NCBI GenBank assembly: GCA_032250835.1
Contig: JAVVEA010000014.1
Location: 28,375-92,374, forward strand
Direction of reading: 5' to 3'
DNA length: 64,000 bases
Origin: a bacterium
Lineage (GTDB): Bacteria; SAR324; XYD2-FULL-50-16
Shown: positions 9 through 24,919 of the stretch, in pieces
Layout: each line of letters begins with the position of its first letter
Position numbering within the stretch: position 1 is the stretch's first letter
Program-made: the position numbers and the translations under genes
Notes under the pieces: model-generated
What the model saw: the letters and a program-made list of their open reading frames with translations, nothing else
What the model was told of the DNA's origin: nothing
The model's database searches: none

Positions 9-842
9 TTGGTGGAACGCCGCAAAAGCCGTCGGGGCTTTTATCCCTTTTTGGAGCAAGAGAGCCAGCCCAAACTGGTTAAAGAAACCAGTCCAACCGA
101 GGCCCACCGGGGCCGGATTATGGTGGTTGATGATGAAGTGATCAGCCTGCAAGCGCAGTTGAACCTCTTACAGAACCAGGGTTTTGACGTGATCGCCCTG
201 CAGGATGGGTTTGAGGCCCTAAAGGAACTAGAAAAGGGGTTGCCCGCCTTGATCTTGGTGGATTTAATGATGCCGCGCATGAGCGGTTTGGAGTTGTGTC
301 AGCGGATACGCGAGCTATGGGAGCCCGACGAACTGCCGATCATTGTGGTGACCGCTAAAACCCAGGTGCAGGTCAAGGCCGAGGTCTTTGAGGCCGGCGC
401 CAACGACTATTTAAGCAAACCCTTCGACCCCGTGGAGCTTGTTGCGCGGGTGGATAACCAAATCCGGCTTTGCAATTTAAAGGGGCTGCAAAAGGAATTA
501 GAACAACTGCGTTCGGGCAGCAGCGAACCATTTGACGGCCTCTTGGTGCGGTTGATGGTGCGGGCATTAAATATCTGGGAACTCACCACCGGCCTGGGCA
601 AGGTCGAACTGGCCGAACAGAGCGGGATTTGGAATGTTTACCTAGACGGCTCTACCTATAAAACCCGCACCCTAGACCGCTACCTCTCCACCGCCAAGCT
701 ACCCAAACGCCCCCGCTGGCGCGACGTCTTAGCCACCGCCGAGTTTGTCGCTCTCCAGCCCAATCTCTCACCGGGCCAGCGCGAAGAGCTATCCCAGCTG
801 AAGGCCCAAATCGAAAAACTGGTTTTTAATCAGGTTTCGTGA
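9..842 (+). CDS. C-terminal part of a probable hybrid sensor/response regulator: REC domain plus ChiS-like C-terminal DNA-binding domain (probably truncated by the window edge)
   Basis: REC motifs IMVVDDE, DLMMPRMSG, VTA, YLSKPF. The C-terminus W-ELTTGLGKVELAEQSGIWNVY...TRTLDRYL...LPKRPRW..V..TA.FV resembles the Vibrio ChiS DNA-binding domain. The frame is open to the window start. Confidence 0.75.
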   Translation: MVERRKSRRGFYPFLEQESQPKLVKETSPTEAHRGRIMVVDDEVISLQAQLNLLQNQGFDVIALQDGFEALKELEKGLPALILVDLMMPRMSGLELCQRIRELWEPDELPIIVVTAKTQVQVKAEVFEAGANDYLSKPFDPVELVARVDNQIRLCNLKGLQKELEQLRSGSSEPFDGLLVRLMVRALNIWELTTGLGKVELAEQSGIWNVYLDGSTYKTRTLDRYLSTAKLPKRPRWRDVLATAEFVALQPNLSPGQREELSQLKAQIEKLVFNQVS

Positions 843-1079
843 AAGAGGCGTGCAATTAAGTAAATGCGCGGCTCCAGGAGGGCTCTGGGTATTTATTGGG
901 CAAGTTTTTATAGGCGACCAGCTTACCGACAGGTTTTGGTTGAAACTTGGGGTCGGCGCTTTTTTGGAGTTTGGGGTATACTGGCGGCCCTCGGAACCGA
1001 TCCCTGATCACCTGGACTTTGCATTAGGCACAAAGCCCTGGCACCAGAAAATAGTTGAGCAGGCCTTTAGAGGTAGGCC

Positions 1080-2135
1080 CTATTTCTGGAAGGTTCCGTG
1101 GTCAATCATCTGCTGGAAAAACTCCACTAGAAATTCTTCGGGCTCGCGGTAGGTGAGGCCCAACTCAGTTTTGCTTTTGGTATGGTCTACCTTCCAGGGG
1201 TAGCCAACGTTGCGCCGCACCATTTTGCGCGGCATGCCCACTAGGGGCCCCACCAGCCATACCAACCACTTGGGCAGCTGTTTTTGGGGGAAGGGATAGG
1301 CGTCGCCATAGTGGCTCCGTAGGACTTGGGCCATCTGCAAGACCGTGAGGCTTTTGGCCGAAACAATATGCCGCCCTTGGGCCTTAGGTGTGAATCCCGC
1401 TAAATAGTGGGCCTGGGCCACGTCGCGCACGTCCACCAGACCAATATCCAAGTCGGGCACCCCGGACTTCATGGTCCCGTCGCCCAACTGGCGGAAGATG
1501 TGGAAGCTTTCGGAAGTGCCCCTGGGGTTGATTCCCGGCCCTAAGACCAGCGTGGGATTGATCACCACTAAATCCCACCGGTTTTGGGCTCGGTTGAGGT
1601 GCCAGGCCTCCTTTTCGGCCAAGGTTTTCGAAAAACTATAGGGCTGGTGGGTCAAGCTAGAGGTGCTATTCCAGTGTTCCTCGGTGGCGGTGCCATTGGG
1701 TAAAGAAAGCAGGTCAACCGTATCGCCCAAAACGGCGGCGCAGCTGCTGGTCAAGACCACCCGCTTGACCGTCGGGGTCCGCTCGACGGACCCTAAAACG
1801 TTGCGGGTGCCCAACAGGGCCGGGTCGATCAGGTCCTTTTGGGCATCTTTGAATTGCAGGGAAAAGGGCGAGGCCGTATGGAAGACCAGTTCGCAGCCTT
1901 TCATGGCCTCATCATAGCTACCTCCGTCTAGTAGATCGGCCTCAAAGAAGCGGATCTGGCCCGGCAGTTCTTCGGCTAGTTGGCGCAGAAAGCGGGTTTT
2001 GTCCAGGTTGTTTGGGTCGCGGACCGGGGCGTGGACCGTTAAGCCCGCTTCAAGCAACCGGTTGACCAAACGACCGGCAACGTAGCCCGTTGCCCCGGTG
2101 ACTAGTACCGGCATTTTTTTGTTGATTTGGGTCAT
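1080..2135 (-). CDS. NAD(P)-dependent aldehyde reductase / dihydroflavonol-reductase-like extended SDR
   Basis: VTGATGYVA Rossmann motif, FHTASP, VLTSS, YSFSK catalytic YxxxK. Confidence 0.9.
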   Translation of the reverse strand: MTQINKKMPVLVTGATGYVAGRLVNRLLEAGLTVHAPVRDPNNLDKTRFLRQLAEELPGQIRFFEADLLDGGSYDEAMKGCELVFHTASPFSLQFKDAQKDLIDPALLGTRNVLGSVERTPTVKRVVLTSSCAAVLGDTVDLLSLPNGTATEEHWNSTSSLTHQPYSFSKTLAEKEAWHLNRAQNRWDLVVINPTLVLGPGINPRGTSESFHIFRQLGDGTMKSGVPDLDIGLVDVRDVAQAHYLAGFTPKAQGRHIVSAKSLTVLQMAQVLRSHYGDAYPFPQKQLPKWLVWLVGPLVGMPRKMVRRNVGYPWKVDHTKSKTELGLTYREPEEFLVEFFQQMIDHGTFQK

Positions 2136-2393
2136 CGTCTGTCCTGCGGTTGGTGGGATTTTAAAGTAGGTATGCCAAGCCGTAATTTGTGCGCATCCTA
2201 ATAGGGTCTAGTATAAACTATTTGGGGCCAGCGTATACAGACATTTAGTCCCCATTTTTCAAAGAGATGTTTGGGTTTGGGGCGGGGCGTCGGTTTACCC
2301 CGGCTCGGCGGGGATTGGATTGGAGATTTATTTTTTTAACTCTTCTGTTAAGCTGGTGCCGTCCCCCTGAAAATTACGCTTTGGAGACTTCTT

Positions 2394-3965
2394 TTGTCCA
2401 ACCCAGAACAGCTGGATTATGATTTTGTGGTCATCGGCAGCGGCTTCGGCGGCTCTGTCTCGGCGTTGCGGCTCGCCGAAAAGGGGCACCGCGTCTTGGT
2501 CTTGGAGCAAGGCAAGGCCTTAGGCGCTAAGGACATGCCCAAGACCAACTGGAACCTACGGCGCTGGCTGTGGCTGCCGGGTCTTAAGTTTTTTGGGCTC
2601 TTTAAGATGACTTTTTTTAAGCATGTGACGGTGATTTCGGGTGTCGGCGTCGGTGGGGGGTCTTTGGTCTACGCCAACACGCTGCCGGTGCCTAAGTCGG
2701 TTTTTTTTAAGGCCGCCTCCTGGGCGCATTTGGCGGACTGGGAAGCGGAACTTAAGCCCTATTACACCACGGCCTTGAAGATGCTGGGGGCCACCGAGAA
2801 TCCCAAATTGCAGGTCGGCGACTTGGCCCTAAAAGAGCTGGGCCGCCGCCTGGGCCGCGAAGAGTACTTTGAGCCCACCCAGGTGGCGGTCTTTTTTGGT
2901 AAGCCTGAGGTTACCGTCGAGGACCCCTATTTTGGCGGTGAAGGGATCGAGCGGGCAGGCTGCCGGTTTTGTGGCTCTTGCATGACCGGCTGCCCCCATA
3001 ACGCCAAAAACACGCTGGATAAAAACTACCTGCACTTTGCCCAAAAGCGCGGAGCGCGGGTCCAGGCCGAATCCGAAGTGGTCGATGTGACGCCTTTGGA
3101 CGGGGCCGAGGGGGCCAGCGGGTATTTGGTCAAATGGCGGCGCAGCACAAGCTTCTGGGGGCCTTCGGGCGAGGTCCGCGCCGGGGCGGTGGTTTTCTCG
3201 GGCGGCGTTTTGGGGACCTTGAAACTGTTGCTTAAATTAAAAACCAGCAGCCTACCGCAGCTTTCGGACCGCTTGGGATACGGGGTGCGCACCAATTCAG
3301 AAAGCCTGACCTTCAGCACCACCTATGACGCAGGCCAAGACTTTTCCGAGGGCATTGCCATCGGCGCGCTGCTCGAAACGGATGAAAACAGCCATTTGGA
3401 GATTGTGCGCTACGGCGCGGGCTCCGGATTTTGGCGGCTGCTGTCTGGGCCGATGGTGCAGGGAGGCAATCTGGGGGTTCGCTTGTGGAAATTGCTGTGG
3501 GACATGGTCCGCCACCCGGTCTTGAATTTTAGGGCCCTGAGTGTCAAAGACTGGGCCCGCTCGACCCATGTTTTGCTCTTCATGCAAAGCCTAGACAGCC
3601 GCCTGCGCTTCAAGCGCGGCCTCTTTGGCGGGTTGTCTTCGAGCATGGAACAAGGAGCGCCCCCCACCGCCTTGATGCCTGAGGCCGCCGCTTTGGCCCA
3701 AGAATACGCCGAGCTGACCAACGCCAAACCCATGGCCTTGGTCCTAGAAAGCCTCCTAGGCATCCCCAGCACCGCCCATATCTTGGGCGGAGCCTGCATG
3801 GGGCGAGATGCGACAGAAGGAGTGATCGATCAAAACAACCGCGTCTTCGGCTACCAAAACCTCTGGATCTGCGACGGCTCCATGATCTCCGCCAACATCG
3901 GCGTCAACCCCAGCCTAACGATCACCGCCCTAACCGAACGGGCGATGGATAAGATTCCACCCTAA
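2394..3965 (+). CDS. GMC-family FAD oxidoreductase, cholesterol oxidase (ChoD-like)
   Basis: VIGSGFGG FAD motif, GVGVGGGSLVYA, CRFCGSCMTGCPHNAKNTLDKNYL, TAHILGG, GVNPSLTITAL. Confidence 0.88.
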   Translation: MSNPEQLDYDFVVIGSGFGGSVSALRLAEKGHRVLVLEQGKALGAKDMPKTNWNLRRWLWLPGLKFFGLFKMTFFKHVTVISGVGVGGGSLVYANTLPVPKSVFFKAASWAHLADWEAELKPYYTTALKMLGATENPKLQVGDLALKELGRRLGREEYFEPTQVAVFFGKPEVTVEDPYFGGEGIERAGCRFCGSCMTGCPHNAKNTLDKNYLHFAQKRGARVQAESEVVDVTPLDGAEGASGYLVKWRRSTSFWGPSGEVRAGAVVFSGGVLGTLKLLLKLKTSSLPQLSDRLGYGVRTNSESLTFSTTYDAGQDFSEGIAIGALLETDENSHLEIVRYGAGSGFWRLLSGPMVQGGNLGVRLWKLLWDMVRHPVLNFRALSVKDWARSTHVLLFMQSLDSRLRFKRGLFGGLSSSMEQGAPPTALMPEAAALAQEYAELTNAKPMALVLESLLGIPSTAHILGGACMGRDATEGVIDQNNRVFGYQNLWICDGSMISANIGVNPSLTITALTERAMDKIPP

Positions 3966-4061
3966 AACCGGCAAAGAACCTTGGACAAAGCAGGGCCCTT
4001 TGAGTTCAGCTAAGGGTTCAGCGAAGTTTTCCGCCATTGTTTTACCTCTTGTTCAGCCGCT

Positions 4062-4751
4062 ATGTCCCTGCCGATCCGCCGTAAATTCCAGCCCAAAGGC
4101 ATCACCATACTTTATGACGACGCCGATATTTTGGTGATCGATAAGTCGGCCGGTTTGTTGACCATCGGGACCGATAAGGAGCGTTTTAGGACCGCCTATG
4201 CCCTGATGACCGACTATGTCAAAAAGGGGACCGCTAAGTCCAAGGCCCGGTTGTGGATTGTCCACCGTCTGGATCAGGACACTTCGGGGGTCTTGGTGTT
4301 GGCTAAGTCCGAGTCGGTTAAGCTTCAGCTGCAAAATAACTGGGACCAAGTAACCAAAAAATATCTGGCCATTGCCCACGGAAAGTTTGTTTCCCAAAGT
4401 GGCGAATTCCGCAGCTACTTGACCGAAAACCAATATTTCAAAGTCTTCTCAACCAACGACACCAGCCTGGGCAAACTGGCGGTCACTAAGTTTGTGGTTA
4501 AAGAGGAGCACGAAGGGTTGAGTTTGTTGGAGCTTGAGTTGGTCACCGGCCGCAAACACCAGATCCGTGCCCACCTGGCCGAGTCGGGCCACCCGATCTA
4601 CGGCGATACGCGTTACGGTCAGCCTGACCCGGCGGCCAAGCGTATGGCTCTACATGCCCAGTCGATCACCTTGATACATCCTAGAACCAAAGAATCCATG
4701 ACCTTCGAAGCCAAGACGCCGGGCATCTTCCAGCACCTTATGGGCCGCTGA
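4062..4751 (+). CDS. RluA/RluD-family RNA pseudouridine synthase
   Basis: DKSAGL, HRLDQDTSG catalytic Asp motif, TGRKHQIRAHL, PIYGDTRY, LHA. Confidence 0.93.
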   Translation: MSLPIRRKFQPKGITILYDDADILVIDKSAGLLTIGTDKERFRTAYALMTDYVKKGTAKSKARLWIVHRLDQDTSGVLVLAKSESVKLQLQNNWDQVTKKYLAIAHGKFVSQSGEFRSYLTENQYFKVFSTNDTSLGKLAVTKFVVKEEHEGLSLLELELVTGRKHQIRAHLAESGHPIYGDTRYGQPDPAAKRMALHAQSITLIHPRTKESMTFEAKTPGIFQHLMGR

Positions 4752-5020
4752 ATCCAAGCCCCCCAACAGATTTTGACTAAGTTTCATCGGCGTTATCCAT
4801 CGGGCCCTGTTGACCAAGGATCGAGCAAACTAACTACCCGTTGCCAAGTCCCTAGATTACTGACAGTTTACAGGGTAGGTCGAATGGAACAGAGCTTAAT
4901 TCGGGGGAAGCCTGTTTTGCTGGTTTAGGCAAGCGATTGCCCAATGAATGCAACAGGACGGATTAAAGATGTTCAAGGTTATAACAAGGGTCCGGCCGGC
5001 GGCTGTCGGAGGGGGACACC

Positions 5021-7384
5021 TTGTTTGATGGGCTAAAAACTGGATTGCCACCTTTGAGGCTATGGGGCCGGACCTTCTCCTGCTGGGTTTGGGTGTTTTT
5101 TTGGGTTTCGCTGGTGCCGCTGCAGGCGCTGCCTGAAACCCCCCGGCTGGATTTGGACAGCGGCTGGGAATACCGCTGGGGCGACTCGCCCTTTAAAGAG
5201 GGACGACCGCTCTGGACCCAAAATCCAGACCCCCAAGCCTGGACCCCCATAGATTTTCCTTCCAACCCGCTACAGCGCGACGGACGCACCAACGTCTGGT
5301 ACCGCATCCTGCTGCCCGAGCGGCCCGATCTGGGCAGTTCGCTCTTTGTGCTCAGCATTGACTTGATCGCCGAGGTCTATTTTGAAGACCAAAAGATTTA
5401 TGAGTACGGAACCTTTGCCGCCGACGGAACGGGCAAATTCGAAGGTTGGCCCTGGCACCTGATCCCCCTGCCGCGCCACTATCCCGGCCACTACCTATAC
5501 TTTCGGGTCTATTCGGATTACCCGGATATTGGTCTTTGGGGGGAGGTGACTCTGGGTAATGAAGGCGGCCATATCCAGAAAATCATCCAAAACGATCTGG
5601 CCAGTGCTTCGGTGGGCCTATTCTTTATCTTTTTTGGGCTGTTGTTGCTGGGGTTAGCGCTCTACCGCTTGAGCGGCGGCGTGTTTTTGATGGGCCTCTT
5701 CCTAGTGGATTTGGGCGTCATGCCCATCCACGGAACGCACCTCAAGCAGCTGATTTATTTTGATCCCCTCGGCTGGCAGTATGTGGGCGCGCTCAGCTAC
5801 TTCTTTTTGCCCGTCGCCATGGCGGCTTTGGTGCAGGTCCTGACCGGTGCCGGGAAATGGAAGTTACACGCTCGGGTTTGGCAGCTGCATCTGGCCTTTT
5901 TAGGCTATGCCCTGATCTTTTCCTGGGCCGGATGGGTTAATTTATCCAGTACCTACATCCATTTTGACCTGCTCGCGACGGCCACGTTGTTAGCCTTGAC
6001 CCTGTCGCTGCATCTGCGCGCCCGCATGGGCAGCTTCAACCAAAAGCTGTTGGCCCTGGGCTTTTGGGTGATGTATTTGATCCTGCTTTATAATGGCTTG
6101 GTCGCCCATGACCTACTGCCCTTTACGCCCAGTTCGGAATATGTGGGGCCTATCTTCCTGGCCTTTTGTTTTGGGCTGATTATGCTTCGTGATTACAACT
6201 CGCTGCGTCAGGGGCTTAAGGCCCGCACCCGCCAGCTAGAAGACCTCAATCAAAATCTGGAACTAAAGGTCAGCGAACGTACCGAAGCGCTGCAGCGCAG
6301 CAACGAAACCAAGGACAAGTTTTTTTCGATTATCGCCCATGACCTGCGCGGCCCGGTAAGCAGCCTCGCTACGCTGTTCAATCAGGTCTTTAAAACCCCG
6401 GCCGATCTCGACCAACTCACCTTTAACAGTATCGCCCAAACTACCCGCAACACCGCCGAACTGTTAGACAACCTATTGACTTGGTCCTCAAACCAAAGCG
6501 GGCAGATGGAATTCCACCCCGCCACCTTCCGCCTGTCCGAGTCGGTGGCGGAAGCTATCGAGGGGCTGGGGAGCCAAGGCGCGGTCAAGCAGATCCAGGT
6601 TGTTTTTGAGGAAATGACCGAAGATTGGGTGTTCGGCGACCGGAACATGATCGCCACGGTGGTACGCAACCTGTTGGGCAATGCCATCAAGTTTACTGCT
6701 GATGGGGGTCGGGTGGAAATTAGGCTTAGCTTTGAAGGCAACTGGGTTCAACTGTTGGTTTCTGACAATGGGGTGGGGATTGAACCGGCAACGTTAAATC
6801 AATTGTTTGTACCGGAGGTTAAGCCCGCCACGAGGCTCGGTACCCGTAAAGAAAAGGGAACCGGCTTAGGCTTATTGCTCTGCACTGAATTTGTCCGCCG
6901 CAACGGAGGGAAGCTTTGGGCCGACAGCACCCCTGGCCAAGGTAGCCAGTTTTACTTGCAACTGCCTCGGGGCAAAAGCCCAACGGCTGAAGCCCCAGGG
7001 ATATTAAAAACCCTGCCCAAAGGGTTCCAGAGGTTTTTGCTGGTGGAAGATAACGGGCTGCACCAACGCGCGGTCACGCATTTGATGCAAGAGCTACAAG
7101 GGCAAGTCTGGGTGGTCTCTAACGGTACCGAAGCCCTGGCCCGGGTCTCTAAACAGGTGGTCGACTTGGTCTTGATGGACATCGACCTACCGGGTATGAA
7201 CGGCATCGAGACGACCAAGCAACTACGCGCACTCTACCCGCACCTTCGGGTGGTGGCGCTTTCGAGTTATAGCCGCCAGGAAATCTTAGAGATCAGCCCC
7301 GTCGATCCCTTTGACGGCTACCTAGGCAAGCCCTTGGAGAGCGGTCCTTTCTTACGTTTGCTCGCCGACCTTGCGGCCCCTTAG
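5021..7384 (+). CDS. Multi-TM hybrid sensor histidine kinase (periplasmic domain, about 7 TM, HisKA, HATPase, REC)
   Basis: H-box IIAHDLRGP, N-box NLLGNAIKF, DNGVG, GTGLGL, REC LLVEDN/DIDLP. Start codon uncertain. Confidence 0.9.
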   Translation: MFDGLKTGLPPLRLWGRTFSCWVWVFFWVSLVPLQALPETPRLDLDSGWEYRWGDSPFKEGRPLWTQNPDPQAWTPIDFPSNPLQRDGRTNVWYRILLPERPDLGSSLFVLSIDLIAEVYFEDQKIYEYGTFAADGTGKFEGWPWHLIPLPRHYPGHYLYFRVYSDYPDIGLWGEVTLGNEGGHIQKIIQNDLASASVGLFFIFFGLLLLGLALYRLSGGVFLMGLFLVDLGVMPIHGTHLKQLIYFDPLGWQYVGALSYFFLPVAMAALVQVLTGAGKWKLHARVWQLHLAFLGYALIFSWAGWVNLSSTYIHFDLLATATLLALTLSLHLRARMGSFNQKLLALGFWVMYLILLYNGLVAHDLLPFTPSSEYVGPIFLAFCFGLIMLRDYNSLRQGLKARTRQLEDLNQNLELKVSERTEALQRSNETKDKFFSIIAHDLRGPVSSLATLFNQVFKTPADLDQLTFNSIAQTTRNTAELLDNLLTWSSNQSGQMEFHPATFRLSESVAEAIEGLGSQGAVKQIQVVFEEMTEDWVFGDRNMIATVVRNLLGNAIKFTADGGRVEIRLSFEGNWVQLLVSDNGVGIEPATLNQLFVPEVKPATRLGTRKEKGTGLGLLLCTEFVRRNGGKLWADSTPGQGSQFYLQLPRGKSPTAEAPGILKTLPKGFQRFLLVEDNGLHQRAVTHLMQELQGQVWVVSNGTEALARVSKQVVDLVLMDIDLPGMNGIETTKQLRALYPHLRVVALSSYSRQEILEISPVDPFDGYLGKPLESGPFLRLLADLAAP

Positions 7385-10101
7385 CCGGTATTTTTTAAGC
7401 CCGAAGCGATGGCGTTGACGGTGATCAAAAGGTCTTCAAGCAGCGACTCCTCTTCGGGCTTTTCGCGCCATAAAGCAAGCAGTTCGATTTGCTGTAGGTG
7501 CAACTGCCGCAACCCGTCACTTCGGATTTCCATGGACCAACGGAAGCGTTGTAGCGAATCGGAAACGATGCCTTGATAGAGTTCGTTGAGGCCCGTCAAG
7601 GTTCGCTCGTATTCGGCTAAAATTTTGCCTAGCTGGGCTTGGCGCAGTTCGGGATTGCTCACCAATTGCGCATAGAGACCCATGACCTCGGGGTCCGCTA
7701 GGGTCAAAGCGCGGCGGATGTTTTGCAATAGGTAGTCTAATCCCCGCTGGTTGACGCTGGCCTTGAGCCGTTCCCAGTCTTCAGGATTCTGCGTTTTGAG
7801 GGCCTCGAAAGCGGAGCCTACCCCATACCAAGAAGGCAAAAGAAAACGGGATTGGTTCCAGGCAAAAACCCAGGGGATGGCCCGTAAGTCTTGTATGCTG
7901 GCCTTGCCGGTGCGCCGGGCCGGGCGCGAGCCGATCCTAGAATGTTCCAGCAGGTCGATGGGGGTTGCTTGGCGGAAGAATTCAAAAAAACCGGGGTCCT
8001 TAACCAAGGCTTCGTAGGCCTCCCCAGAGTCCCGGGCCATTTTTTCCATCACCGACTCCACCAATCCCAAATCTGGTGCCGAGCTGGCGTTGGCAAAGCC
8101 CTGGAAACTAACGCCCGCCATCAGGAGTTCTAGGTTGTAGAGCGCGGTGGTCCGGTAGCCGTATTTCTGGTTGATTGACTCCCCCTGTTCGGTCATGCGG
8201 AAGCTGCCCTTTAGGCTACTCGGCGGGAGGGCTTCTAAGAAGCTTTTGGTCGGGCCTGCTCCCCGGCCGATGGAGCCACCTCGGCCATGGAAGAAGCGGA
8301 TCATGACGTCCCGCTGGTCACCGATCAAGGCCATTTCTTGCTGTGCCTTATAGAGGTTCCATTGGCTGGCCAAGATGCCGCCGTCTTTATTGGAGTCCGA
8401 ATAACCCACCATCACCTGCTGCACCTTGCGGCTGCGGCGTTTGTCTTGTTGGATTAGGGTCAAGCTGGCTTGGGTTAAGGGGTGGTCCAAGAAGGCCGAC
8501 AGAATCGCCCCGCCGCCTTGTAAATCCTCGATGGTTTCCAGCAAAGGCACCACCGTCAGGGGACAGGCCAACCCTTCGTCAGTACGCACCAACAACCCCG
8601 CCTCGCGGGCCAGCAAATAGACCGATAGCAGGTCCGAGAGGCTTCGGGTCATCGAAACAATATAGGCCCCAAAGGCGTTGATGCCATATTTACGGTTGTA
8701 GTCGGCGATCACCCCAAAGGTGGCGCGGAGGTTGTCGGCTTCCTTACCGGCAGACTGTTCGGGCCGCAAAAAGGGGCGTAGACTGGTTAGTTCTTGGTTT
8801 AAAAAATCTAACCGCCGCGCCTCGACCCACTCGGCGAATTGGTCCCCCTCGGGGACGCCTGCCTGGGAAAGGATTTGGGCGATGCCTTGGTCGTGGTAGT
8901 CGGAATTTTGGCGGATGTCCAAAGCCGCCAAATGAAACCCAAAGGTTTTGATCAGGCGGTAGGGGTGGCGGACTTCGGTCCGGGCGATCCCTTGAGCCCC
9001 AATCTGGCAGAGCGCATCGTAAAGCAGCTTAAGGTCCGCTAGCAGTTCCACGGAGCTGTGGTAGGCCGATGGGTGGTCTTGAAGCAGTAAGGCCCCTTCG
9101 CGTTCAATCAGCGGTAACTTAGCCATCATGAGGTTAACAAACTGCCGCCAAGGTTCTCCGGGGTTGCCGCCCATGGCGTGGGTACCGGGCAGCCCTAACT
9201 GATGGACCAACGCGCCCATGCGCTGTTCTAAAGGATCGGGGATTTTTTGCAGGCTCGCGGCCATGCCCAGTTTTCCGCCCAACGCCTTGAGTTGATCCCA
9301 AATGGAACAGAGCGCCAAACGCCGCATCTCTAACAGAGTCTTTTGGGTGAATCCGTCGGTCACTAGCGGATGCCCGTCCCGGTCGCCACCGACCCAGTTG
9401 CCGAAACTCAGCCGGGGGTAACGGGCGAGGTCGTCGATCCAGTCTTCGTCTCCACCGGCCTGGCTCCAGGCCCAGACCAGACGTTGGTCGAGCATCTGGA
9501 GGACTTCAGGGAAGATGCGGGTGAGGTAAAAGAGGATGTTGTGGAACTCCTTTTCTAGCGTAGGCTTTTGGGCGTATAGCTCGCCAGTGCGCCAGATCCG
9601 CTCGATCACCGAAAGTAGGCGCAGGTGCAAGTCCCGCTTTTCTGCTTGACTGCGCAGGGGGTTTTCAAGTTCCTTTAAATCCCGAAAGAGGTCGCGGTGG
9701 AATTCGAGGATGGTGATCCGCTTGGCCTCGGTGGGGTGCGCGGTCAACACGGGTTCCACATGGATTTCGCCCCATAGGGGGCGTAGCTGTTTGAGGTCGA
9801 TCCCCCGTTCCCCTAGGCGATAAAAGACATCGGCCCAAAGCCCCGGGATGCGCTCGCTTTCGTTTTCGCGCTGGCGGCGTAGGCGGGCGTAGTAGTTTTC
9901 TTCGGCAATGGTGAAGAGTTGGAAACTGACCGAATAAAACTGGGCCTTCTGGTAAGCCGAAACCTTACGCTTGGGCGCTTCACCTAGACGCCAAGGAAGC
10001 AATTCGGCCAATTCGGGCTCGCCGATTTGCTCCAGCATTTCTTTAAAGAATTTAGTCAGTTGTTCAACTTCTTGGCGCAATAGTGCCAGTTGCTCGATCA
10101 T
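7381..10101 (-). CDS. ppc: Phosphoenolpyruvate carboxylase
   Basis: VLTAHPTE, WVGGDRDG, QVMVGYSDSNKDGG, FHGRGGSIGRG, LRAIPWVFAW, C-terminal KNTG. The ORF extends to 10179; ATG at 10101 is the more plausible start. Confidence 0.97.
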   Translation of the reverse strand: MIEQLALLRQEVEQLTKFFKEMLEQIGEPELAELLPWRLGEAPKRKVSAYQKAQFYSVSFQLFTIAEENYYARLRRQRENESERIPGLWADVFYRLGERGIDLKQLRPLWGEIHVEPVLTAHPTEAKRITILEFHRDLFRDLKELENPLRSQAEKRDLHLRLLSVIERIWRTGELYAQKPTLEKEFHNILFYLTRIFPEVLQMLDQRLVWAWSQAGGDEDWIDDLARYPRLSFGNWVGGDRDGHPLVTDGFTQKTLLEMRRLALCSIWDQLKALGGKLGMAASLQKIPDPLEQRMGALVHQLGLPGTHAMGGNPGEPWRQFVNLMMAKLPLIEREGALLLQDHPSAYHSSVELLADLKLLYDALCQIGAQGIARTEVRHPYRLIKTFGFHLAALDIRQNSDYHDQGIAQILSQAGVPEGDQFAEWVEARRLDFLNQELTSLRPFLRPEQSAGKEADNLRATFGVIADYNRKYGINAFGAYIVSMTRSLSDLLSVYLLAREAGLLVRTDEGLACPLTVVPLLETIEDLQGGGAILSAFLDHPLTQASLTLIQQDKRRSRKVQQVMVGYSDSNKDGGILASQWNLYKAQQEMALIGDQRDVMIRFFHGRGGSIGRGAGPTKSFLEALPPSSLKGSFRMTEQGESINQKYGYRTTALYNLELLMAGVSFQGFANASSAPDLGLVESVMEKMARDSGEAYEALVKDPGFFEFFRQATPIDLLEHSRIGSRPARRTGKASIQDLRAIPWVFAWNQSRFLLPSWYGVGSAFEALKTQNPEDWERLKASVNQRGLDYLLQNIRRALTLADPEVMGLYAQLVSNPELRQAQLGKILAEYERTLTGLNELYQGIVSDSLQRFRWSMEIRSDGLRQLHLQQIELLALWREKPEEESLLEDLLITVNAIASGLKNTG

Positions 10102-10498
10102 GACATCAGCGGGGGGTCGGGTTTTAGCATCCCAACATTGGGGAAGGGGCGCTTTGGCCACAGTATCGCACAGCTTCAAAATGGGTGGTATCCCAAAGAT
10201 TGGTTAAGGAGCGGTAAAAAACCCCTATATTGGCTTACTCAGGGACCTTGGGAGGGGGCTGCTGGATTTGGGTGGATGGAAATTTAAAAAACCTCTTTTA
10301 AGGCCGACGCCCCCTTGCGCGCTCATCTTCACCCCGGCGGCTCTGTATCTATTCCAAACAGGCGTCAAGCGCCGGCACCCCAAGTCCTGGCTGCGCTGGT
10401 TGGGGGAGTCTTTGGGACCTTGGCGCTTGGTTTCTTAGCTCAGCGCTGCTAGCTTTAGGCCCAAGTAACCCAACGCGCCAACCTTAGCTTCGAATCCT

Positions 10499-10972: not shown

Positions 10973-11150
10973 ACCCCACCCCGAAAGGATTCTCCCTTCC
11001 TTTGGCGCTTCGGCCTCCCCTTCGGCAAGCTCACCCGCACAATAAGTTGCGCCCTTTCCTACAAACTTAAAGGGCAATCCCTGATTTCTTCGGACCGCGA
11101 CAAGGGTTAAGCTAGGCTCAAGAATAAACCCATAGTTTCTTCGAGGAGGC

Positions 11151-11558
11151 ATGATGAACCGACCCCATACTTTTGCTAAAACAAATAATTCTGTGCCATT
11201 AGCTTCGGTCCACCCGGAACCGGCTAATGAAGACAACCACCGTCTGCGGCAATTGGTGGTGCTGAGCATGCACCTTTCTTCGATTCTCTGGCGCAAAGCA
11301 TCCCAGCGGGGCCGCGCCGAATTAGCCATGGAGTCCGGCCTGTGGACCGTGATCGCCCAGGTGGGTGGAAAGTTGTTGACCCAAACGATGGACCGACACT
11401 TTTCCCTAGTGACCTTGCCGGTAGAGCCAAACTACCGTTCGGTGATTTTGACGGCAAAATATGTGCTGCGCGCCGCCGAGGGCCTATCTTGGAGTGAAGA
11501 GGCCGAAAAACTGGAATTGGTTTGTTCCGAGTTGGAGCGTCGGCTCAAGGGCTTTTAA
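11151..11558 (+). CDS. Stand-alone ChiS-DBD-like protein
   Basis: W...SQRGRAELAMESGLWTV...TQTMDRHFS...LPVEPNY..VILTAKYVL aligns with the C-terminus of 9..842 and with 24476..24919. GGAGG RBS before the ATG. Confidence 0.65.
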   Translation: MMNRPHTFAKTNNSVPLASVHPEPANEDNHRLRQLVVLSMHLSSILWRKASQRGRAELAMESGLWTVIAQVGGKLLTQTMDRHFSLVTLPVEPNYRSVILTAKYVLRAAEGLSWSEEAEKLELVCSELERRLKGF

Positions 11559-11570: not shown

Positions 11571-12026
11571 TTGATGGAGTTCTCTCGTTGGATAGGACAA
11601 GCGCGGCCCATAGAGCAGATGGGGGTGGTGGAGTTTGATGCACAATACCGCAGGGTGGCGGGTCTGGCCAAACTACTAGAGCGCAGTTTTAAAAGCCCCC
11701 AAACGGCTCTCCTGGTCCCTTTACTGTTTGAAAACTTAAGGCTTTGTGCCCTGCGCTACTTTCGGTTTGAAGAAAAATTGTTGCTCTGCTTTAGGCCTGA
11801 AGAACAGCAGGAACACTTGCTGGACCATGACTACTTGCAACGCAGCCTGAGCGAGCTCAGTCAAGCCTCTCCCCATCTCCCCTCCGGCCAGCTTGAAACC
11901 CGCAGTTTGGAGATCTTCGAATATTGGATCTACCAGCATATGGAACGCAAAGACCGGGCATTAGCCCAATGGCTCTGCGACCAAAATAAATTTTGCCAGC
12001 TCTACCTCCCCGTTCTCTGCGATTAG
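11571..12026 (+). CDS. Hemerythrin-like protein with atypical ligands
   Basis: GVVEFDAQY, YFRFEEKLL, EHLLDH, WIYQHMERKD follow the bacteriohemerythrin pattern, with Tyr at two His positions. Confidence 0.7.
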   Translation: MMEFSRWIGQARPIEQMGVVEFDAQYRRVAGLAKLLERSFKSPQTALLVPLLFENLRLCALRYFRFEEKLLLCFRPEEQQEHLLDHDYLQRSLSELSQASPHLPSGQLETRSLEIFEYWIYQHMERKDRALAQWLCDQNKFCQLYLPVLCD

Positions 12027-12054
12027 CGGACGCAAACCGCTAGCTGCCCCTTAG
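11827..12054 (+). repeat. 228-bp direct repeat, left copy (3' end of the hemerythrin-like gene plus 28 bp downstream)
   Basis: Colinear with 17626-17853; 6 mismatches by eye. Confidence 0.95.
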
Positions 12055-12081
12055 AATCAGAATCAGGTGACAGGAATCAAT

Positions 12082-12161
12082 AATCAGGTGGCAGTATGCT
12101 GATTTCCGATCAAATTTTAGGAACTGCACTGTTGCAAAAATAGGCATACTGCCACCCTATT
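12082..12161. repeat. 80-bp imperfect-palindrome element (REPIN/MITE-like), copy A
   Basis: Arms AATCAGGTGGCAGTATGC and GCATACTGCCACCCTATT; about 80% identical and gap-free to 17546-17625. Confidence 0.85.
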
Positions 12162-12438
12162 ACTATTGGTTTCATTCGCTGGGAGTGGGATTTTTATATT
12201 GATTAAAGATAACAAAAGAATAAATTCACTACCCCGTACCGGAACCGCCACCGAACTTTTTTTTGACATTTCCAAAGCTTTTGTGGAAACATCTGCCCTA
12301 GGGAAAATAGCCTATTCCTGATAAGGATAATTCTTAATTTTACTTTTAAAGCGCCCAGGAAAAGCCGATTCCCTTGAAATAGCCGTTAAATCAACCGTTT
12401 TCTGTTAGGTGGACCATCTGTGTGAGGTGAGAAAATGA

Positions 12439-13950: not shown

Positions 13951-14046
13951 TACCCGAGCTTGATTAATGGAACCTATGCGAGGAATCGCATAGGTTCTTG
14001 AACGCAACTTACCTTGTGTTTAAGCCTATTTGCAAAGGAACAGAAT

Positions 14047-14682: not shown

Positions 14683-14710
14683 GCATCTTCTAGAGTTCAG
14701 ATTAGAGTCT

Positions 14711-15948: not shown

Positions 15949-16180
15949 GTGGCTTAACCCGAAGCCGATAGCAGTGTTGGCTATCCTGATTTGCCTTTCG
16001 CTTCATTGAGGATGTATTTTGGAGTGATTTTAGAAATTATTCTCATAAAACTGAGGACCCGATCAACCTGTTGCCCTCAATGTGATTTAGATGAAGTAGG
16101 CGTTATTTAGGTGCTTTCGGTTTCGAAAGTAAAAAACGTTGGGGTTTACGCTAAAAACTCTTTTAAAATGGATTGCAGCA

Positions 16181-16807
16181 ATGACCCATCAGGCCAATAG
16201 ACGACTTCAGCCGAATAGTGTTTTTCATTTCATTGCAGCATCGTTGCTTTGCTTGGTGACTTCCTGCATGGCTCCGGTTTCGGATACTTATTTGAATTAT
16301 CCAGAACCAAAAGCCGATAGCGAAGTCTGCATCGTCAAAACCTCACCGGGAGAGCAGACTGTTAGGACCGATGTGAAATCGGTACAAAACGGGGAGTTTT
16401 ATTCGGTAGATAGTCAGTTGATGCGTACCAGCAAACTGGTTCGATATGGGGAGACTTTGCCGAGAAATATTTCTGAAAGTGACCCCCAACTTTGGACCTA
16501 CGAAGGCACCAAACATCCCTATCATGTTTATAAATTGAAATTAACCCCTGGAAGGTACCAATTAGTTGCCATTTTTCCCTACGAGTTAGACTCTATCCTA
16601 GAGCATAAATTGCATGATAAAATCACCCTTAAAAACTTTGATTGCAAAGCAGGGGAGAGCTATCGTTTGTTTTATTCGTTGGATAAATTTCCTGAAAAGG
16701 AGGGCATGCGTCTTTTTTGGATGGAAGGGGAGCAGGGGGTAATTTGGGAAAGATGGAAACACAAAACTCAACGCGAAGCCTTGTTTGATCTCTCAGATGT
16801 TAAATAG
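16181..16807 (+). CDS. Lipoprotein, paralogue 2 (candidate immunity protein)
   Basis: Lipobox LVTSC; shared motifs SD.Y.NY, TVRTDV, QLMR.S.L.R.GET.PR.ISE.DP, LTPG, CKAG. ORF open from 16139. Confidence 0.75.
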   Translation: MTHQANRRLQPNSVFHFIAASLLCLVTSCMAPVSDTYLNYPEPKADSEVCIVKTSPGEQTVRTDVKSVQNGEFYSVDSQLMRTSKLVRYGETLPRNISESDPQLWTYEGTKHPYHVYKLKLTPGRYQLVAIFPYELDSILEHKLHDKITLKNFDCKAGESYRLFYSLDKFPEKEGMRLFWMEGEQGVIWERWKHKTQREALFDLSDVK

Positions 16808-16871
16808 ATTATTTGAGGACGCAAATTGAGGCCACAAACAGAGCGAATTCATGGTGAAATGAGCCAAAAAA

Positions 16872-17501
16872 ATGGATATGCAAAAGTTAAAAGAAAAGTT
16901 GGTTAGGAGCGGTTCCTATACGGGTATGGCCCTCTTGTTTGCGGTCCTTTCGGCTTGCTCGCCGGTTTCGGATATTTACCTCAACTATGATGGGACCAAG
17001 CCGAAAAGTGAGGTATGCACCCTGCGGACTCAAGGAACCCACAGCATAAGAACGGATGTGGACCGGAAATATGGCATGAAGCTCATCGCTGTGGACGGTC
17101 AATTGATGCGCGATAGCCAGTTGATCCGGGTTGGAGAAACCACGCCGCGGTATATTTCAGAAAATGATCCCTATTTTGTTCAAGGTGGAGAACGACATTA
17201 CCTTGTGACGGTTGTCGAAGCTCGGCTAACGCCAGGAAAGCACGATTTTGAAGTAGCCAACTTCACCGGTGGAAGCGGACCTCTCCCTGGGCAAATAGCG
17301 ATCGACCACATAAAGTTTCTTAATTGGAATTGTAAAGCAGGCGTTACCTACCAAGTATTTTATTCCAACGACGAAGTTTTCGGTCATTTGCGTGAGTACA
17401 AATATTGGATTGAGGACGAAAACCGAGTTCTTTGGGAAGGGTGGAAACGTCTTTCGGTCCAAAATGTTACCTATGATTTGAGCAAAATTAAGGCACCTTG
17501 A
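16872..17501 (+). CDS. Lipoprotein, paralogue 3 (candidate orphan immunity protein)
   Basis: Lipobox VLSAC; strongly similar to 14047..14682 (LIAVDGQLMR, VEARLTPG.HD.EV, YWIEDEN.VLWEGWK). Confidence 0.78.
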   Translation: MDMQKLKEKLVRSGSYTGMALLFAVLSACSPVSDIYLNYDGTKPKSEVCTLRTQGTHSIRTDVDRKYGMKLIAVDGQLMRDSQLIRVGETTPRYISENDPYFVQGGERHYLVTVVEARLTPGKHDFEVANFTGGSGPLPGQIAIDHIKFLNWNCKAGVTYQVFYSNDEVFGHLREYKYWIEDENRVLWEGWKRLSVQNVTYDLSKIKAP

Positions 17502-17545
17502 ACGGGCCAACATGTTTTACCTGCTTGTCATCGGGTGCCCAAAAA

Positions 17546-17625
17546 AATTAGGTGACAGCATACTGATTTCCGATCAAATTTCATGAACTGCGTTGTCGAG
17601 AAAATAGGCATGCTGTCGCCTGATT
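17546..17625. repeat. 80-bp imperfect-palindrome element (REPIN/MITE-like), copy B
   Basis: Arms AATTAGGTGACAGCATAC and GCATGCTGTCGCCTGATT; directly abuts the right 228-bp repeat. Confidence 0.85.
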
Positions 17626-17853
17626 ATGACTACTTACAACGCAGCCTGAGCGAGCTCAGTCAAGCCTCTTCCCATCTCCCCTCCGGCCAGCTAGAAACCC
17701 GCAGTTTGGAGATCTTCGAATATTGGATCTACCAGCATATGAACCACAAAGACCGGGCATTAGCCCAATGGCTCTGCGACCAAAATAAATTTTGCCAGCT
17801 CTACCTCCCCGTTCTCTGCGATTAGCGGACGCAAACCGCTAGCTGCCCCTTAG
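17626..17853 (+). repeat. 228-bp direct repeat, right copy (duplicated 3' fragment of the hemerythrin-like gene; gives the fragment ORF 17583..17825)
   Basis: Near-identical to 11827-12054. Confidence 0.95.
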
Positions 17854-18135
17854 GCCCTCAAATGATAAACGGACGCTTTGGCTTCTTGGCTAAGCTTTCT
17901 TCATCCCCCATCCAAAAGGCTCCACCGGGCCGTCTGTGGGCCTGCCCAAACACCTACTGACGGGTCTTTGATCTGATCTTAAAGGAGGTTGTCCGGCTAT
18001 CACCCGCTCTTTGTGGGGATACCTTTTGGGTTAGCTTGGCAAAGGGGTCAAATAGTGGTGAAATCTGGACATATTTCTGACATACTCACCGGGGTAAACA
18101 GGCGAACAGCGTGGGATCATAGGAAGAGTAGGGAC

Positions 18136-21143
<3,008 letters not shown>

Positions 21144-21147
<4 letters not shown>

Positions 21148-21683
21148 GGCGTCTGCTCTGTGGGCTGGGCCTGCTTTGGTTGCTCGCTGCTTGCAGCCAC
21201 CCAATGCCGCCCGAGCCGGTTCCCTTGAGCCGCGGCGCTTCCTTTGAGTTGATGCCGCCCGCTTCTTACGGGGCCGATTTAGCGGTGCAACATCAAGTCA
21301 CGTTGATTCAAGCAGATCAAGAGCGCCAGTGGGTGGTGCTCTTGGAAATTGAGGGGGATCAACTGGCTATGGCGGCTTTGGGGCCCATGGGGCAGCCTTT
21401 ACTGAGCTTGACTTGGGGGCCCGAAGGCTTAAGCGAGCAGAGCCCCTTGCCGTTGCCCGTGGAAGGGCGCTTCGTTTTGGCGGACCTGCAACTGGCCCTT
21501 TGGCCTCACCTAAGTGGCTTGAAGGGGCTGCATCTGGAAGAAAGTGCCACCGAACGCCGATTTTTTTCAGCCCAAAAGGAACTGATACGGATCACCTACT
21601 ATCCCCAACGCGTGGGTTTTAAGTGGCTTCAAATCCAACACTTTGAGCGGAACTACCGGCTCAAGATTACCGCCTTAGACTAG
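21144..21683 (+). CDS. DUF3261-family lipoprotein (usually found in aryl-polyene/fatty-acid clusters)
   Basis: Lipobox [16 protein letters not shown] motif; C-terminal NYRLKI. Confidence 0.75.
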
Positions 21684-22405
21684 GTCAAGCCGCCGTCTAA
21701 AGAAATCACTTGCCCGGTCAGATAGCCTGCTTGGGGGCTGAATAAATAAGACACCAAAGCGGCCACCTCTTCGGGCTGGCCCAGCCTCCCGGCGGGGATT
21801 TGTTTGAGCAACAGGCTTAGGTCCAACCCTTCGATCATTTCCGTCTCAATCAAGCCCGGAGCCACGGCGTTGACGGTGATCTTGCGGCTCGCCAATTCTA
21901 AAGCCAAGCTTTTGACTAAGCCGATCAGGCCCGCCTTGCTGGCCCCATAGTTGGCTTGGCCTTTGTTGCCCTTAAGGGCGGTCACCGAAGAAAGCGCCAC
22001 AATGCGCCCGCCCTGGCGGGTTTTGATCATCGGCAGGATCAAGGGATGCAAGACGTTATAAGCGCCGCCTAGGTTGGTGCCCAAGACCCGGTCCCAATCT
22101 TCGCCCGGCATAGCCGCAAAAAGGCCATCGGCAGCAATACCCGCCGAAAGCAGCACCCCATAAAAAGCCCCATGTTCGGCTAGGAAACGCTCCAGGGCGG
22201 CCCGGCAGGCCTGACGGTCACTGACATCAAAAGCCAGCAGTTGGGCTTGGCCCCCGGCGGCTTGGATCTCTGCGGCCACCTGGGCTGCTTGGTCTTGGTT
22301 TTGGCGGCAGTTTAGGGCCACCGAAAATCCGTCTGCCGCCAACCGGCGGGCGGCGGCTGCGCCGATTCCCCGGCTGGCACCGGTGATCAATACCCAAAGA
22401 GTCAT
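21680..22405 (-). CDS. fabG: 3-oxoacyl-ACP reductase (FabG/ApeQ-like)
   Basis: TGASRGIG, AGIAADG, NYGASK, NAVAPGLIET; ATG 22405 overlaps the upstream stop. Confidence 0.88.
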   Translation of the reverse strand: MTLWVLITGASRGIGAAAARRLAADGFSVALNCRQNQDQAAQVAAEIQAAGGQAQLLAFDVSDRQACRAALERFLAEHGAFYGVLLSAGIAADGLFAAMPGEDWDRVLGTNLGGAYNVLHPLILPMIKTRQGGRIVALSSVTALKGNKGQANYGASKAGLIGLVKSLALELASRKITVNAVAPGLIETEMIEGLDLSLLLKQIPAGRLGQPEEVAALVSYLFSPQAGYLTGQVISLDGGLT

Positions 22406-23814
22406 CGTCTTTTTCTCCCCATTAAAGAAACCCGCCGGACTACCTGGGGGTCTAGTAAGTCCCAAGCCGGACCCCGGTAGCCTCGCTCAAAGAGCTGGTT
22501 GAGTAGAGCTTGGTTCGGTGCCGGTCCCAATCCGGGGACCTGCCAAAAAGAATCGCCTTGGGCTAGTTGCTGCAACCGGGCTCGAACTGGCTCTTGGCCG
22601 ATCTTAGGTGAAAGATAAAAACGTGGTTCACGCAGGTCGTCGGTCCGGTCAATCAAGCCATCGGCAAGGGCGCGTTGGGCGAGTTGCGTGTTGGGGAAGA
22701 TGCGGGGCCCCAAAAAGGCAATGGCGGCGGTGGGGCGGTGTTGTTCAAAAAGTTCCAAGGTGGCTTCAAAGCTTTCTTCGTCTTCGTCTGGACCCATAAA
22801 AATCAGGTAATGTGCCGCCGGTAGACCGGCCTGATTGCAGGCCTCGATGCTGCGGCGGATGTCTTGGGGGCTGAAGTCTTTTTGCAGGCCCGCTAGCGTC
22901 TTGGGGTGGGCCGCATCGGTGCCAAATTCCAAGCCGAGACAGCCGCTTTCTCGGAATAGTTCGGCTAGTCTTTGGTCGAAGCCCCGGGGGCTGGCAAAGG
23001 CGTACCAGCCAATATCCAGCCGGGCCTTGATGAGCGCCTGGGCCAGTTCGGCCGCCTGATGGGTGGGGTGGTTGAAGACATCATCCACAAAAAACACCGG
23101 CCCCTTGAGCCCCCGCTCCTTCAGTGCGGCCAAATCCCGCACCACCGAAGCGGTCGGACGGGTCGAAGTCGCGGTGCCGCTGATCGCCGGGTAGGTGCAG
23201 TAGGAACATTTAAAGGGGCATCCTCGTTTGGTCAAGACGTTGACCAGCCCGCGCCGGGCCTCGTATTGTTCTAGGTCAATCAAGCCATAGCCCGCCGGTT
23301 GGTCAAAGGCGGCGGCGGTTTTGGGGTTTTGGTGCCAGGTCTCTCCTTCTATCCAGCAAAGCCCCGGCACCTGGGTCATGGGTTGGTTTTGGGCCAGGGC
23401 GTCTAAAAAGCTCAAGATCGACCCTTCCCCCGGTCCGACCACCCCCCACTGGGCCCCCGAAAGCTGCAAGATCAACTGAGGCATGATGGAAAACCCACTG
23501 CCGCCCAAGATACGCGGTGCGGGCGATAACTGCCCACAAAGCTGGATCAGCCGGAGGATCCGGGGTAGGTAGTGGGTTTGTTGGATCAAGGAGACATTGT
23601 CAATATTGCGGATAGAAAAGGCGACCACCTGGGGCTCCAAGTCGGTGATGGCTGCTTCGAGCTCTGCCGCGCCCTCCCCTGGGGCAAAACAGAGGTCTAA
23701 AAAAGTAAGCTCGTGGCCCGCCGAGGCGACGGCCTGACCGATGTAGGAGGCACCTAAAGGTGGCACAGGGTAGGGGAAGTGCTCGTTGTTGACGGCGACT
23801 AAAAGAACTTTCAT
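22402..23814 (-). CDS. B12-binding radical SAM protein, lipid-biosynthesis-associated type
   Basis: N-terminal PYPVPPLG..Y and SIRNIDN cobalamin-binding domain; KRGCPFKCSYC CxxxCxxC; FVDDVFN. Confidence 0.85.
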   Translation of the reverse strand: MKVLLVAVNNEHFPYPVPPLGASYIGQAVASAGHELTFLDLCFAPGEGAAELEAAITDLEPQVVAFSIRNIDNVSLIQQTHYLPRILRLIQLCGQLSPAPRILGGSGFSIMPQLILQLSGAQWGVVGPGEGSILSFLDALAQNQPMTQVPGLCWIEGETWHQNPKTAAAFDQPAGYGLIDLEQYEARRGLVNVLTKRGCPFKCSYCTYPAISGTATSTRPTASVVRDLAALKERGLKGPVFFVDDVFNHPTHQAAELAQALIKARLDIGWYAFASPRGFDQRLAELFRESGCLGLEFGTDAAHPKTLAGLQKDFSPQDIRRSIEACNQAGLPAAHYLIFMGPDEDEESFEATLELFEQHRPTAAIAFLGPRIFPNTQLAQRALADGLIDRTDDLREPRFYLSPKIGQEPVRARLQQLAQGDSFWQVPGLGPAPNQALLNQLFERGYRGPAWDLLDPQVVRRVSLMGRKRR

Positions 23815-24413
23815 GGCTGCCGTTCGCTTGCCGAAAAAAGGGCTTGTTCGGCCGAGGTGGGTTGGGCCAGCTCCGTGACGCCGCTAAAGCGGATCGTTGT
23901 TTGGCCGCCTTTGGCTTCGGTGAGTTGAACCTCAACCAGCCGGTCCTGCGGGTCCAGCCGCACCTGCAATTGGTCTAGCTGGGCGGCCAGACCGGGGTCT
24001 TTGGGCCGGGCGGTCAATTGACGTCCTGTCTTAAGGGGCTTCCATTGTAGCTCAAACCGCTCGGCTAGATCCATCAGCTGGCCACTGAAGAGCGGTAACA
24101 AAAGGCCCGCCACCAGGGCTTGACCGGCCTGGGGCGAGATCAGGGGGCTGCGCTCGCCAGCGTCGAGCTTGAACAATCCTTGCGGATTGATCAACAGGAC
24201 CTGGGCCAGCGGTTTCTCGGTGGTCCAGAGGATGCCCTGGCCCTGCCAAAAGACCATCTGGCCTTGGCTACGGAAGGGCCGCTTCAAAAAAGGTTGGCTT
24301 CGTTCTTGGGTGAACTGCGCCCGGTAGCTGGGCAGGGAGGAAGTGGCTTGGGCCACTAGAGGCTGGACCCAAAGGCCCAGTAGCCACAGTAAAGAAAGCA
24401 TGAGGCAGCGCAT
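23811..24413 (-). CDS. LolA-family outer-membrane lipoprotein carrier-like protein
   Basis: Signal peptide; AQFTQER, S.G...F, GILW..EKP, GG.T.I.F. Confidence 0.8.
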   Translation of the reverse strand: MRCLMLSLLWLLGLWVQPLVAQATSSLPSYRAQFTQERSQPFLKRPFRSQGQMVFWQGQGILWTTEKPLAQVLLINPQGLFKLDAGERSPLISPQAGQALVAGLLLPLFSGQLMDLAERFELQWKPLKTGRQLTARPKDPGLAAQLDQLQVRLDPQDRLVEVQLTEAKGGQTTIRFSGVTELAQPTSAEQALFSASERQP

Positions 24414-24475
24414 CAGCAGACCCTAAAGGAATTTCCTCTAAGGTAGCAGCCGTGCCCAAACAAGTAAACTAGGGC

Positions 24476-24919
24476 TTACAGGCTGGCAAAGCCCTGTTGC
24501 ATTTGCTCGACCAAGTGGCGTAGCTGTTCGAGCTTTGACTCGGCGACGCGGCCCCGGGTGTGGCGGATCACATAACTACCGGTCTGCATCAATACATGCC
24601 AGCGGGGCCGGTTGGGTAAGCTAGACAGATTGAGGTATTTATCGAAGGTCCGCAAGCGGCAGGTGCCGGTGGTTTCGATGGTCACCGTCCACAGACCCGA
24701 TTCGAGGGCTAAGTCGATTTTGTCTTTGCCCGTACCTTGCTCCCAAAGGTCCAAGGCTTCCCGCAGCAACTCGACACAGAGGCCGCGCATCCATTGGAGG
24801 TGGTCTTCGGGGTTCTGCTGTTTCCGATTTGGTTCACCGAAGAGTTCGCGCGAAAACGAGGGCTTGCTGAAAGGCACTTGCGGGTGGGTCCTATTCATGG
24901 TTCCTCCGGGGTTGATCAT
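24476..24919 (-). CDS. Stand-alone ChiS-DBD-like protein
   Basis: ALDLWEQGTGKDKIDLALESGLWTV...RLRTFDKYLNLSSLPNRPRWH....TG.YV; GGAGG RBS before the alternative ATG at 24898. Confidence 0.75.
   Translation of the reverse strand: MINPGGTMNRTHPQVPFSKPSFSRELFGEPNRKQQNPEDHLQWMRGLCVELLREALDLWEQGTGKDKIDLALESGLWTVTIETTGTCRLRTFDKYLNLSSLPNRPRWHVLMQTGSYVIRHTRGRVAESKLEQLRHLVEQMQQGFASL

Follow-up and report, generated by a model that had tools for sequence, protein, structure and literature searches.

The window analysed here, a 64,000-nucleotide (nt) stretch of contig JAVVEA010000014.1 from a SAR324 bacterium (assembly GCA_032250835.1, positions 28,375 to 92,374), contains three copies of the C-terminal DNA-binding domain (DBD) of ChiS, two of which, named copies B and C in the following, are encoded as the domain alone. 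The stand-alone DBD adds a new architecture to a known, little-studied family, and the observation is real. Copy A, the tail of a membrane hybrid kinase, is an ordinary member of the family; the interest lies in B and C. The features are as follows:

3..842, plus strand: C-terminal part of copy A, with the receiver at about 117-452 and the ChiS-family DBD at about 522-839
11143..11149, plus strand: ribosome-binding site GAGGAGG of copy B, read from the sequence
11154..11558, plus strand: copy B, stand-alone ChiS-family DBD of 134 amino acids (aa), composed of a leader of about 22 aa and the domain (PDB match, model, hexamers)
24476..24898, minus strand: copy C, stand-alone ChiS-family DBD of 140 aa, composed of a leader of about 30 aa and the domain (PDB match, hexamers)
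24903..24907, minus strand: ribosome-binding site GGAGG of copy C, read from the sequence

Sequence matches of all three copies, together with a structural match of the copy B model, bear out the assignment to the ChiS DBD that had been proposed in the original prediction, and the W/G/SG/W/LP-type pattern on which it was based is present, in an alignment, at all three places. Searched separately against the PDB with phmmer, each copy matches a single entry, 7KPO, which is the ChiS DBD (E 8.9e-22 for A, 2e-7 for B and 5e-16 for C; next entries E ≥ 0.68). Sequence similarity, judged over ChiS residues 1024-1129, qualifies all three as ChiS-family DBDs, and a family profile of 39 rows spans them from position 2 or 4 to position 100 or 101 of 102; thus, a profile or structural match, on which the identification had been made to depend, was found for each copy. 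Pfam and NCBIfam scans returned no model matching the ChiS-family DBD and no other domain in B or C. Copy B, the most divergent of the three and the one that was modelled, is predicted to adopt the helix-sheet-helix fold: its AlphaFold2 model, built on a 58-row alignment, has a predicted local distance difference test score (pLDDT) of 89.5, Foldseek places it on 7KPO at E 7.7e-7, and its superposition on 7KPO gives a VIA Z of 18.4 with a root-mean-square deviation of 1.5 Å over 107 of 107 residues, the next chain having Z 6.6. This model leans on the family alignment and says as much about the family as about B; the single-sequence model is poor (pLDDT 59.7), and 7KPO nevertheless ranked first (E 0.58). 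The fold of copy B is predicted to be intact; in both B and C the hairpin is one residue longer than that of ChiS.

That B and C are stand-alone genes and not fragments is supported by their ribosome-binding sites, by coding-like hexamers and by the lack of a kinase remnant upstream. The starts first proposed needed correction: the likely ones are 11154 instead of 11151 and 24898 instead of 24919, each 4 nt past GGAGG, and copy C lies on the minus strand, to which the coordinates 24476..24919 had to be reassigned. The database proteins P0005 and P0001 begin at these same starts (11154 and 24898), both products open with MNR-x-H, and the frame of B is closed by an in-frame stop at 11133-11135, 18 nt ahead of its first ATG. 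The hexamer coding score is 0.41 for B and 0.56 for C, values that none of 428 open non-coding frames reaches (99th percentile 0.19) and that lie above 11% and 28%, respectively, of 488 slices of held-out genes. Strongly conserved columns number 26, of which 18 are retained in B and 22 in C, at less than 50% identity to any relative compared. B and C are very probably translated. The sensor/kinase/receiver-fused layout is found in neither product, and tblastn with fused relatives turned up nothing left of a kinase or receiver in the surroundings of either gene (best E 0.018, with scattered hits); the reading of either as the tail of a frameshifted kinase was rejected accordingly.

Three copies had been claimed, but the genome holds seven (genome-wide count; next match E 0.79), four of them on the window's contig: four hybrid kinases, one protein composed of a receiver (REC) and the DBD, B and C. 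Three of the hybrid kinases, copy A among them, have 7TM-DISM, and the fourth is a Ser/Thr kinase-GAF-histidine kinase (HK) protein of about 2,000 aa. The nearest paralog of C, with 42% aa identity, is a 7TM-DISM hybrid kinase of the same genome (G000:C3:27875-31054, hereafter the C3 kinase). The expansion that had been ascribed to this lineage is supported, but it is phylum-wide rather than lineage-only, the domain occurring in 44 of 88 genomes with up to 16 copies per genome. The phylum matches listed were 150 of 180, and those inspected comprised every listed match in a frame of up to 191 aa and a selection of longer ones. Among the matches listed, at least eight intact stand-alones occur in six of the 87 other genomes, all from family f6, and one further stand-alone is broken; for the family to which the window belongs the listing covered 34 of 37 matches, all in frames of at least 278 aa, and one further short copy is frameshifted. 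Broken short copies in relatives are L042, which is frameshifted, and L058, with an internal stop.

Seven of the eight intact stand-alones of other genomes form one clade (SH-aLRT 93 in a quick tree of 102 columns), and one syntenic ortholog pair of stand-alones has nonsynonymous and synonymous divergences (dN and dS) of 0.25 and 0.93. B and C fall outside the f6 stand-alone clade in this tree, and their scores against a clade-versus-fused profile are negative (-6.9 and -19.3), those of clade members ranging from +6 to +81. In at least four loci from three genomes (L037, L038, L057 and L058, one of them broken) a REC-DBD gene has one or two stand-alones directly behind it. As for other phyla, the best 80 of 416 confirmed genome loci, a sample biased by a query that favoured Vibrionales and Rhodospirillales, included 79 fused proteins, one cut by a contig end, and no stand-alone. 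The 137-aa Aliidongia protein P0026 was discarded as a candidate, as it is part of an open frame of 239 codons and resembles a broken fusion; short proteins among the best 150 of 988 profile hits were left out of the stand-alone count, the majority of those checked lying on contigs of about 1 kb. One database gives a stand-alone of 118-121 aa the name “sensor histidine kinase ChiS”.

The 277-aa protein first read at 9..842 is actually the end of a 930-aa kinase starting 1,951 nt upstream of the window. The full gene of copy A (G000:C5:26424-29216) shows the order 7TM-DISM / HisKA / HATPase / REC / ChiS-DBD, which is the layout of a one-component membrane regulator with the DBD at the C terminus of a sensor/kinase/receiver protein; from the sequence, its phospho-His and receiver motifs look intact, and all four binding-residue equivalents are kept (R1074, K1078 as R, R1090 and R1092). 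Copy A and two more kinases of this genome have the 7TM-DISM, HK, REC and DBD of the groups catalogued in 2021 and are close to them in type; however, copy A has no PAS domain, nor room for one between REC and DBD.

ChiS numbering was transferred through the 7KPO alignments, and the five critical residues were taken from PMC8092284. Fused domains for comparison numbered 103; loci supplied 26 of them, and proteins of at least 400 aa among the best 150 profile hits supplied the other 77, hits shorter than 400 aa being left out as possible contig-edge fragments. Copy C keeps R1074, K1078 and R1090, with R1092H (three of four), and probably binds DNA. Copy B keeps R1092 and shows R1074Q, K1078R and R1090N (two of four), and R1074Q is the change that abolishes DNA binding of ChiS (PMC8092284). 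The suggestion that this copy is a non-binding modulator finds partial support in R1074Q and R1090N, but the same Q/N pair at 1074 and 1090 is carried by an intact fused relative of 1,106 aa, and the fold is predicted intact. Since fused relatives carry Q1074 (10 of 103 domains) and the Q/N pair, copy B stands at the weak end of the family yet within its natural variation, and there is about an even chance that it binds weakly or with changed specificity.

What B and C might do can be approached from ChiS itself. The isolated ChiS DBD and other soluble fragments bind the promoter with no activation (bioRxiv 10.1101/2020.01.10.902320), and membrane re-tethering of soluble ChiS restores activation (PMC13316777; PMC11856585). 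As untethered ChiS binds yet fails to activate, B and C would likely be soluble competitors or repressors, and, of the “transcription factors or antagonists” of the original prediction, ChiS genetics makes the antagonist the better bet. By this analogy, it is tentatively proposed, at slightly less than an even chance, that B and C are soluble, sensor-less DNA binders that sit on the sites of a membrane-tethered paralog and do not activate there. Both are intact genes for single-domain helix-sheet-helix proteins of the ChiS family, whose activity would be set by their amount; once translated, C would bind DNA, and B would do so weakly or with altered specificity, at sites overlapping those of the C3 kinase, where the untethered proteins would repress or compete instead of activating. 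The level of C may be set by a divergent NarL-type system, and a hemerythrin-like neighbour may go with B.

The overlap of sites is proposed because the β-hairpin of B and C matches that of the C3 kinase best. Among 144 family domains, the two top scores of the C hairpin go to the C3 kinase and to L030, its ortholog in genome G003 (52 and 43; next 35), and the same two domains are first for the B hairpin (32 and 30; next 22). In sliding windows the C3-kinase signal is limited to the hairpin, and of the 141 other domains just one shares this top hit; at the DNA level C and the C3 kinase are 68% alike over 136 nt. In ChiS this same region, the sheet, has been proposed to lie in the major groove, and its R1068 may give specificity (PMC8092284). 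The idea that the locus of C arose by splitting off from a copy of the C3 kinase locus was rejected, as the kinase and NarL neighbours of C are not closest to those of C3. Upstream of the C3-type kinase, in both genomes (L001 and L180), lies a divergent NarL-type regulator, and in this genome the kinase precedes an operon for a polar amino-acid ABC transporter (ectoine-like reading), a candidate target.

Several findings weigh against the proposed competition with a tethered kinase. The hairpin match was noticed post hoc, after inspecting the alignment, and is a lead; over the sequence outside the hairpin, the C3 kinase comes only 27th in the ranking for C and 121st in that for B. Copy B lacks two of the three core basic residues, as do 3 of the 103 fused domains, among them the 1,106-aa protein, and it is the longest branch in the quick tree. 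The leaders alone have hexamer scores resembling non-coding sequence (-0.49 for B and -0.01 for C). No orthologs of B or C were found, in a search limited by a genus that holds this one genome only: the single-protein search returned C itself only (one of nine candidates), and the metagenome loci retrieved for C were long fused proteins in 14 of 14 cases. No binding site was found for either copy, and a search for promoters and shared upstream words gave nothing clearly above chance, the words having no shuffle control. In tree tests on the origin of B and C, no grouping was rejected and none was shown: the approximately unbiased test gave p values of 0.49 for all ten stand-alones together, 0.65 for B with C, 0.50 for C with the C3 kinase and L030, and 0.56 for both copies with these two domains. 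Finally, the requirement for membrane tethering has been demonstrated for ChiS only, and soluble REC-DBD proteins, which are numerous in the phylum (22 in the set examined), could well be activators.

B and C might instead be second-tier regulators similar to MarA and SoxS, with regulons of their own that they activate and repress, and with their synthesis set by a neighbouring system. C has a NarL-type regulator and a kinase on its divergent side and possesses three of the four conserved basic residues, and MarA and SoxS are themselves devoid of sensing domains and controlled by their level (PMC10268841). This reading is considered unlikely, as soluble ChiS fragments fail to activate and the hairpin in common with a resident kinase suggests sites used by both instead of private ones. 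The likeness to MarA and SoxS is one of logic, namely a sensor-less DNA-binding domain, presumably controlled by its amount, and, for copy C, an adjoining divergent regulator. The folds are unrelated: B and C show no dual helix-turn-helix AraC domain (no Pfam or NCBIfam match, and the B fold matching 7KPO). Moreover, MarA and SoxS activate and repress proven regulons (PMC10268841).

The residues of the stand-alones suggest another possibility, that B and the f6 stand-alone clade are non-binding or weakly binding partner subunits, contacting a REC-DBD protein or a kinase paralog in a heteromer or by sequestration. R or K is found at R1090 in three of ten stand-alones versus 99 of 103 fused domains, R1092 is replaced by Glu in six of the ten, and the E1057 equivalent is M, L or T in eight of the ten, B and C included, versus E, Q or D in 95 of 103 fused domains; the gene order REC-DBD followed by a stand-alone points in the same direction. 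However, seven of the ten stand-alones belong to one clade, so that these counts are not independent; several clade members have no REC-DBD neighbour, neither B nor C adjoins a paralog, the Q/N pair of B recurs in the intact 1,106-aa protein, and the ChiS DBD crystal contains one chain per asymmetric unit (PMC8092284). Such a role is regarded as fairly improbable. Least probable, and hardly to be expected, is that B, C or both are non-functional leftovers from a partial duplication of kinase tails: the lack of orthologs, the long branches and the broken short copies in relatives would fit, but B and C are complete open domains with their own ribosome-binding sites and coding-like hexamers, their conserved columns are kept far above the overall identity, and no remainder of a kinase lies nearby.

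The neighbours of copies B and C include the following:

11574..12026, plus strand: hemerythrin-like gene, 15 nt past copy B (Pfam PF01814, E 0.003, below the cut-off)
25195..25845, plus strand: NarL-type response regulator, divergent from copy C across a 296-nt gap (Pfam REC and GerE)
25968..27905, plus strand: 7TM-DISM histidine kinase adjoining the NarL-type regulator (domain scan)

The hemerythrin-like gene is probably co-transcribed with copy B; in its product, two of the usual His ligands read as Tyr. A hemerythrin gene lies within 2.5 kb of three of the seven DBD genes versus 6 of 146 other kinase/receiver open reading frames (Fisher p 0.004, with a threshold chosen post hoc); the three hemerythrin genes are G000 C3:25236, C11:449362 and the one at 11574 in the window. 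This proximity may hint that the input is oxygen or redox state; in relatives, nine hemerythrin loci have no DBD nearby. The 3′ half of the hemerythrin-like gene is duplicated by a 228-nt direct repeat (97% identity; 11827-12054 and 17626-17853), accompanied by two 84-nt imperfect palindromes that are 80% alike (12079-12162 and 17543-17626), of which partial copies occur on contigs C14 and C41. Repeats and palindromes flank a pair of near-identical RHS-like genes plus three related lipoprotein-like genes, and from its sequence the block resembles an inserted cassette whose ends are att-like.

On the other side, the NarL-type regulator is inferred to be a candidate controller of the level of C. 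Copy C lies 63 nt ahead of a LolA-like gene, and the region directly downstream (21144-24413) includes lipoprotein-like, FabG-like, radical-SAM-like and LolA-like genes, the domain scan covering LolA; together they resemble part of an aryl-polyene-type cluster.

ChiS, as seen in 7KPO, shares with A, B and C the same domain by sequence and, for B, by predicted fold, and copy A is likewise a membrane hybrid kinase; B and C differ from it in being the domain alone, devoid of membrane anchor, kinase, receiver and PAS. A precedent is GerE of Bacillus subtilis, a stand-alone version of an output domain that is normally fused to a receiver; GerE, however, is a LuxR-type helix-turn-helix protein, unlike the helix-sheet-helix of B and C. 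No paper describing stand-alone members of the ChiS family was found in the literature. According to PMC8092284 the domain occurs “exclusively at the C terminus”, commonly with sensory domains, and in Data Set S1 of that paper none of the eight assigned groups is a stand-alone or a plain REC-DBD. Stand-alones could be among the 254 unassigned accessions, given there without lengths or architectures, which include several per genome from Ca. Lambdaproteobacteria; multi-copy genomes are listed without remark. Architectures beyond the groups assigned in 2021 were also observed, namely cNMP-binding + DBD, FliM/FliG + DBD, Tll0287-PAS + DBD and many plain REC + DBD proteins (examples are L033/L050, P0006, P0092 and P0048). 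In addition, a class of proteins of about 200 aa (L014, L017, L020, L021, L059, L060 and L061) combines a coiled-coil-like N terminus with the ChiS DBD; its seven members form one clade, all four conserved binding residues are basic, and the one scanned has no Pfam match.

Since Pfam and NCBIfam miss the domain, genomes of this phylum contain up to 16 regulators each that escape annotation. Kinases binding DNA from the membrane have ChiS as their model, and natural domain-only members provide a test of whether tethering is a general need of the family and whether untethered copies serve as brakes. A structure of this domain bound to DNA has been named as missing (PMC8092284), and B and C, being small and soluble, would be suited to obtaining it. 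More broadly, and rather doubtfully at present, the ChiS-family domain may be a main transcriptional output of this phylum, having repeatedly lost its membrane sensor to yield soluble decoys, with B and C retaining the DNA-reading hairpin of one tethered kinase and shutting off its targets by sitting on them at a distance from the membrane. If this is true, such decoys would represent a natural off-switch for membrane-tethered transcription factors.

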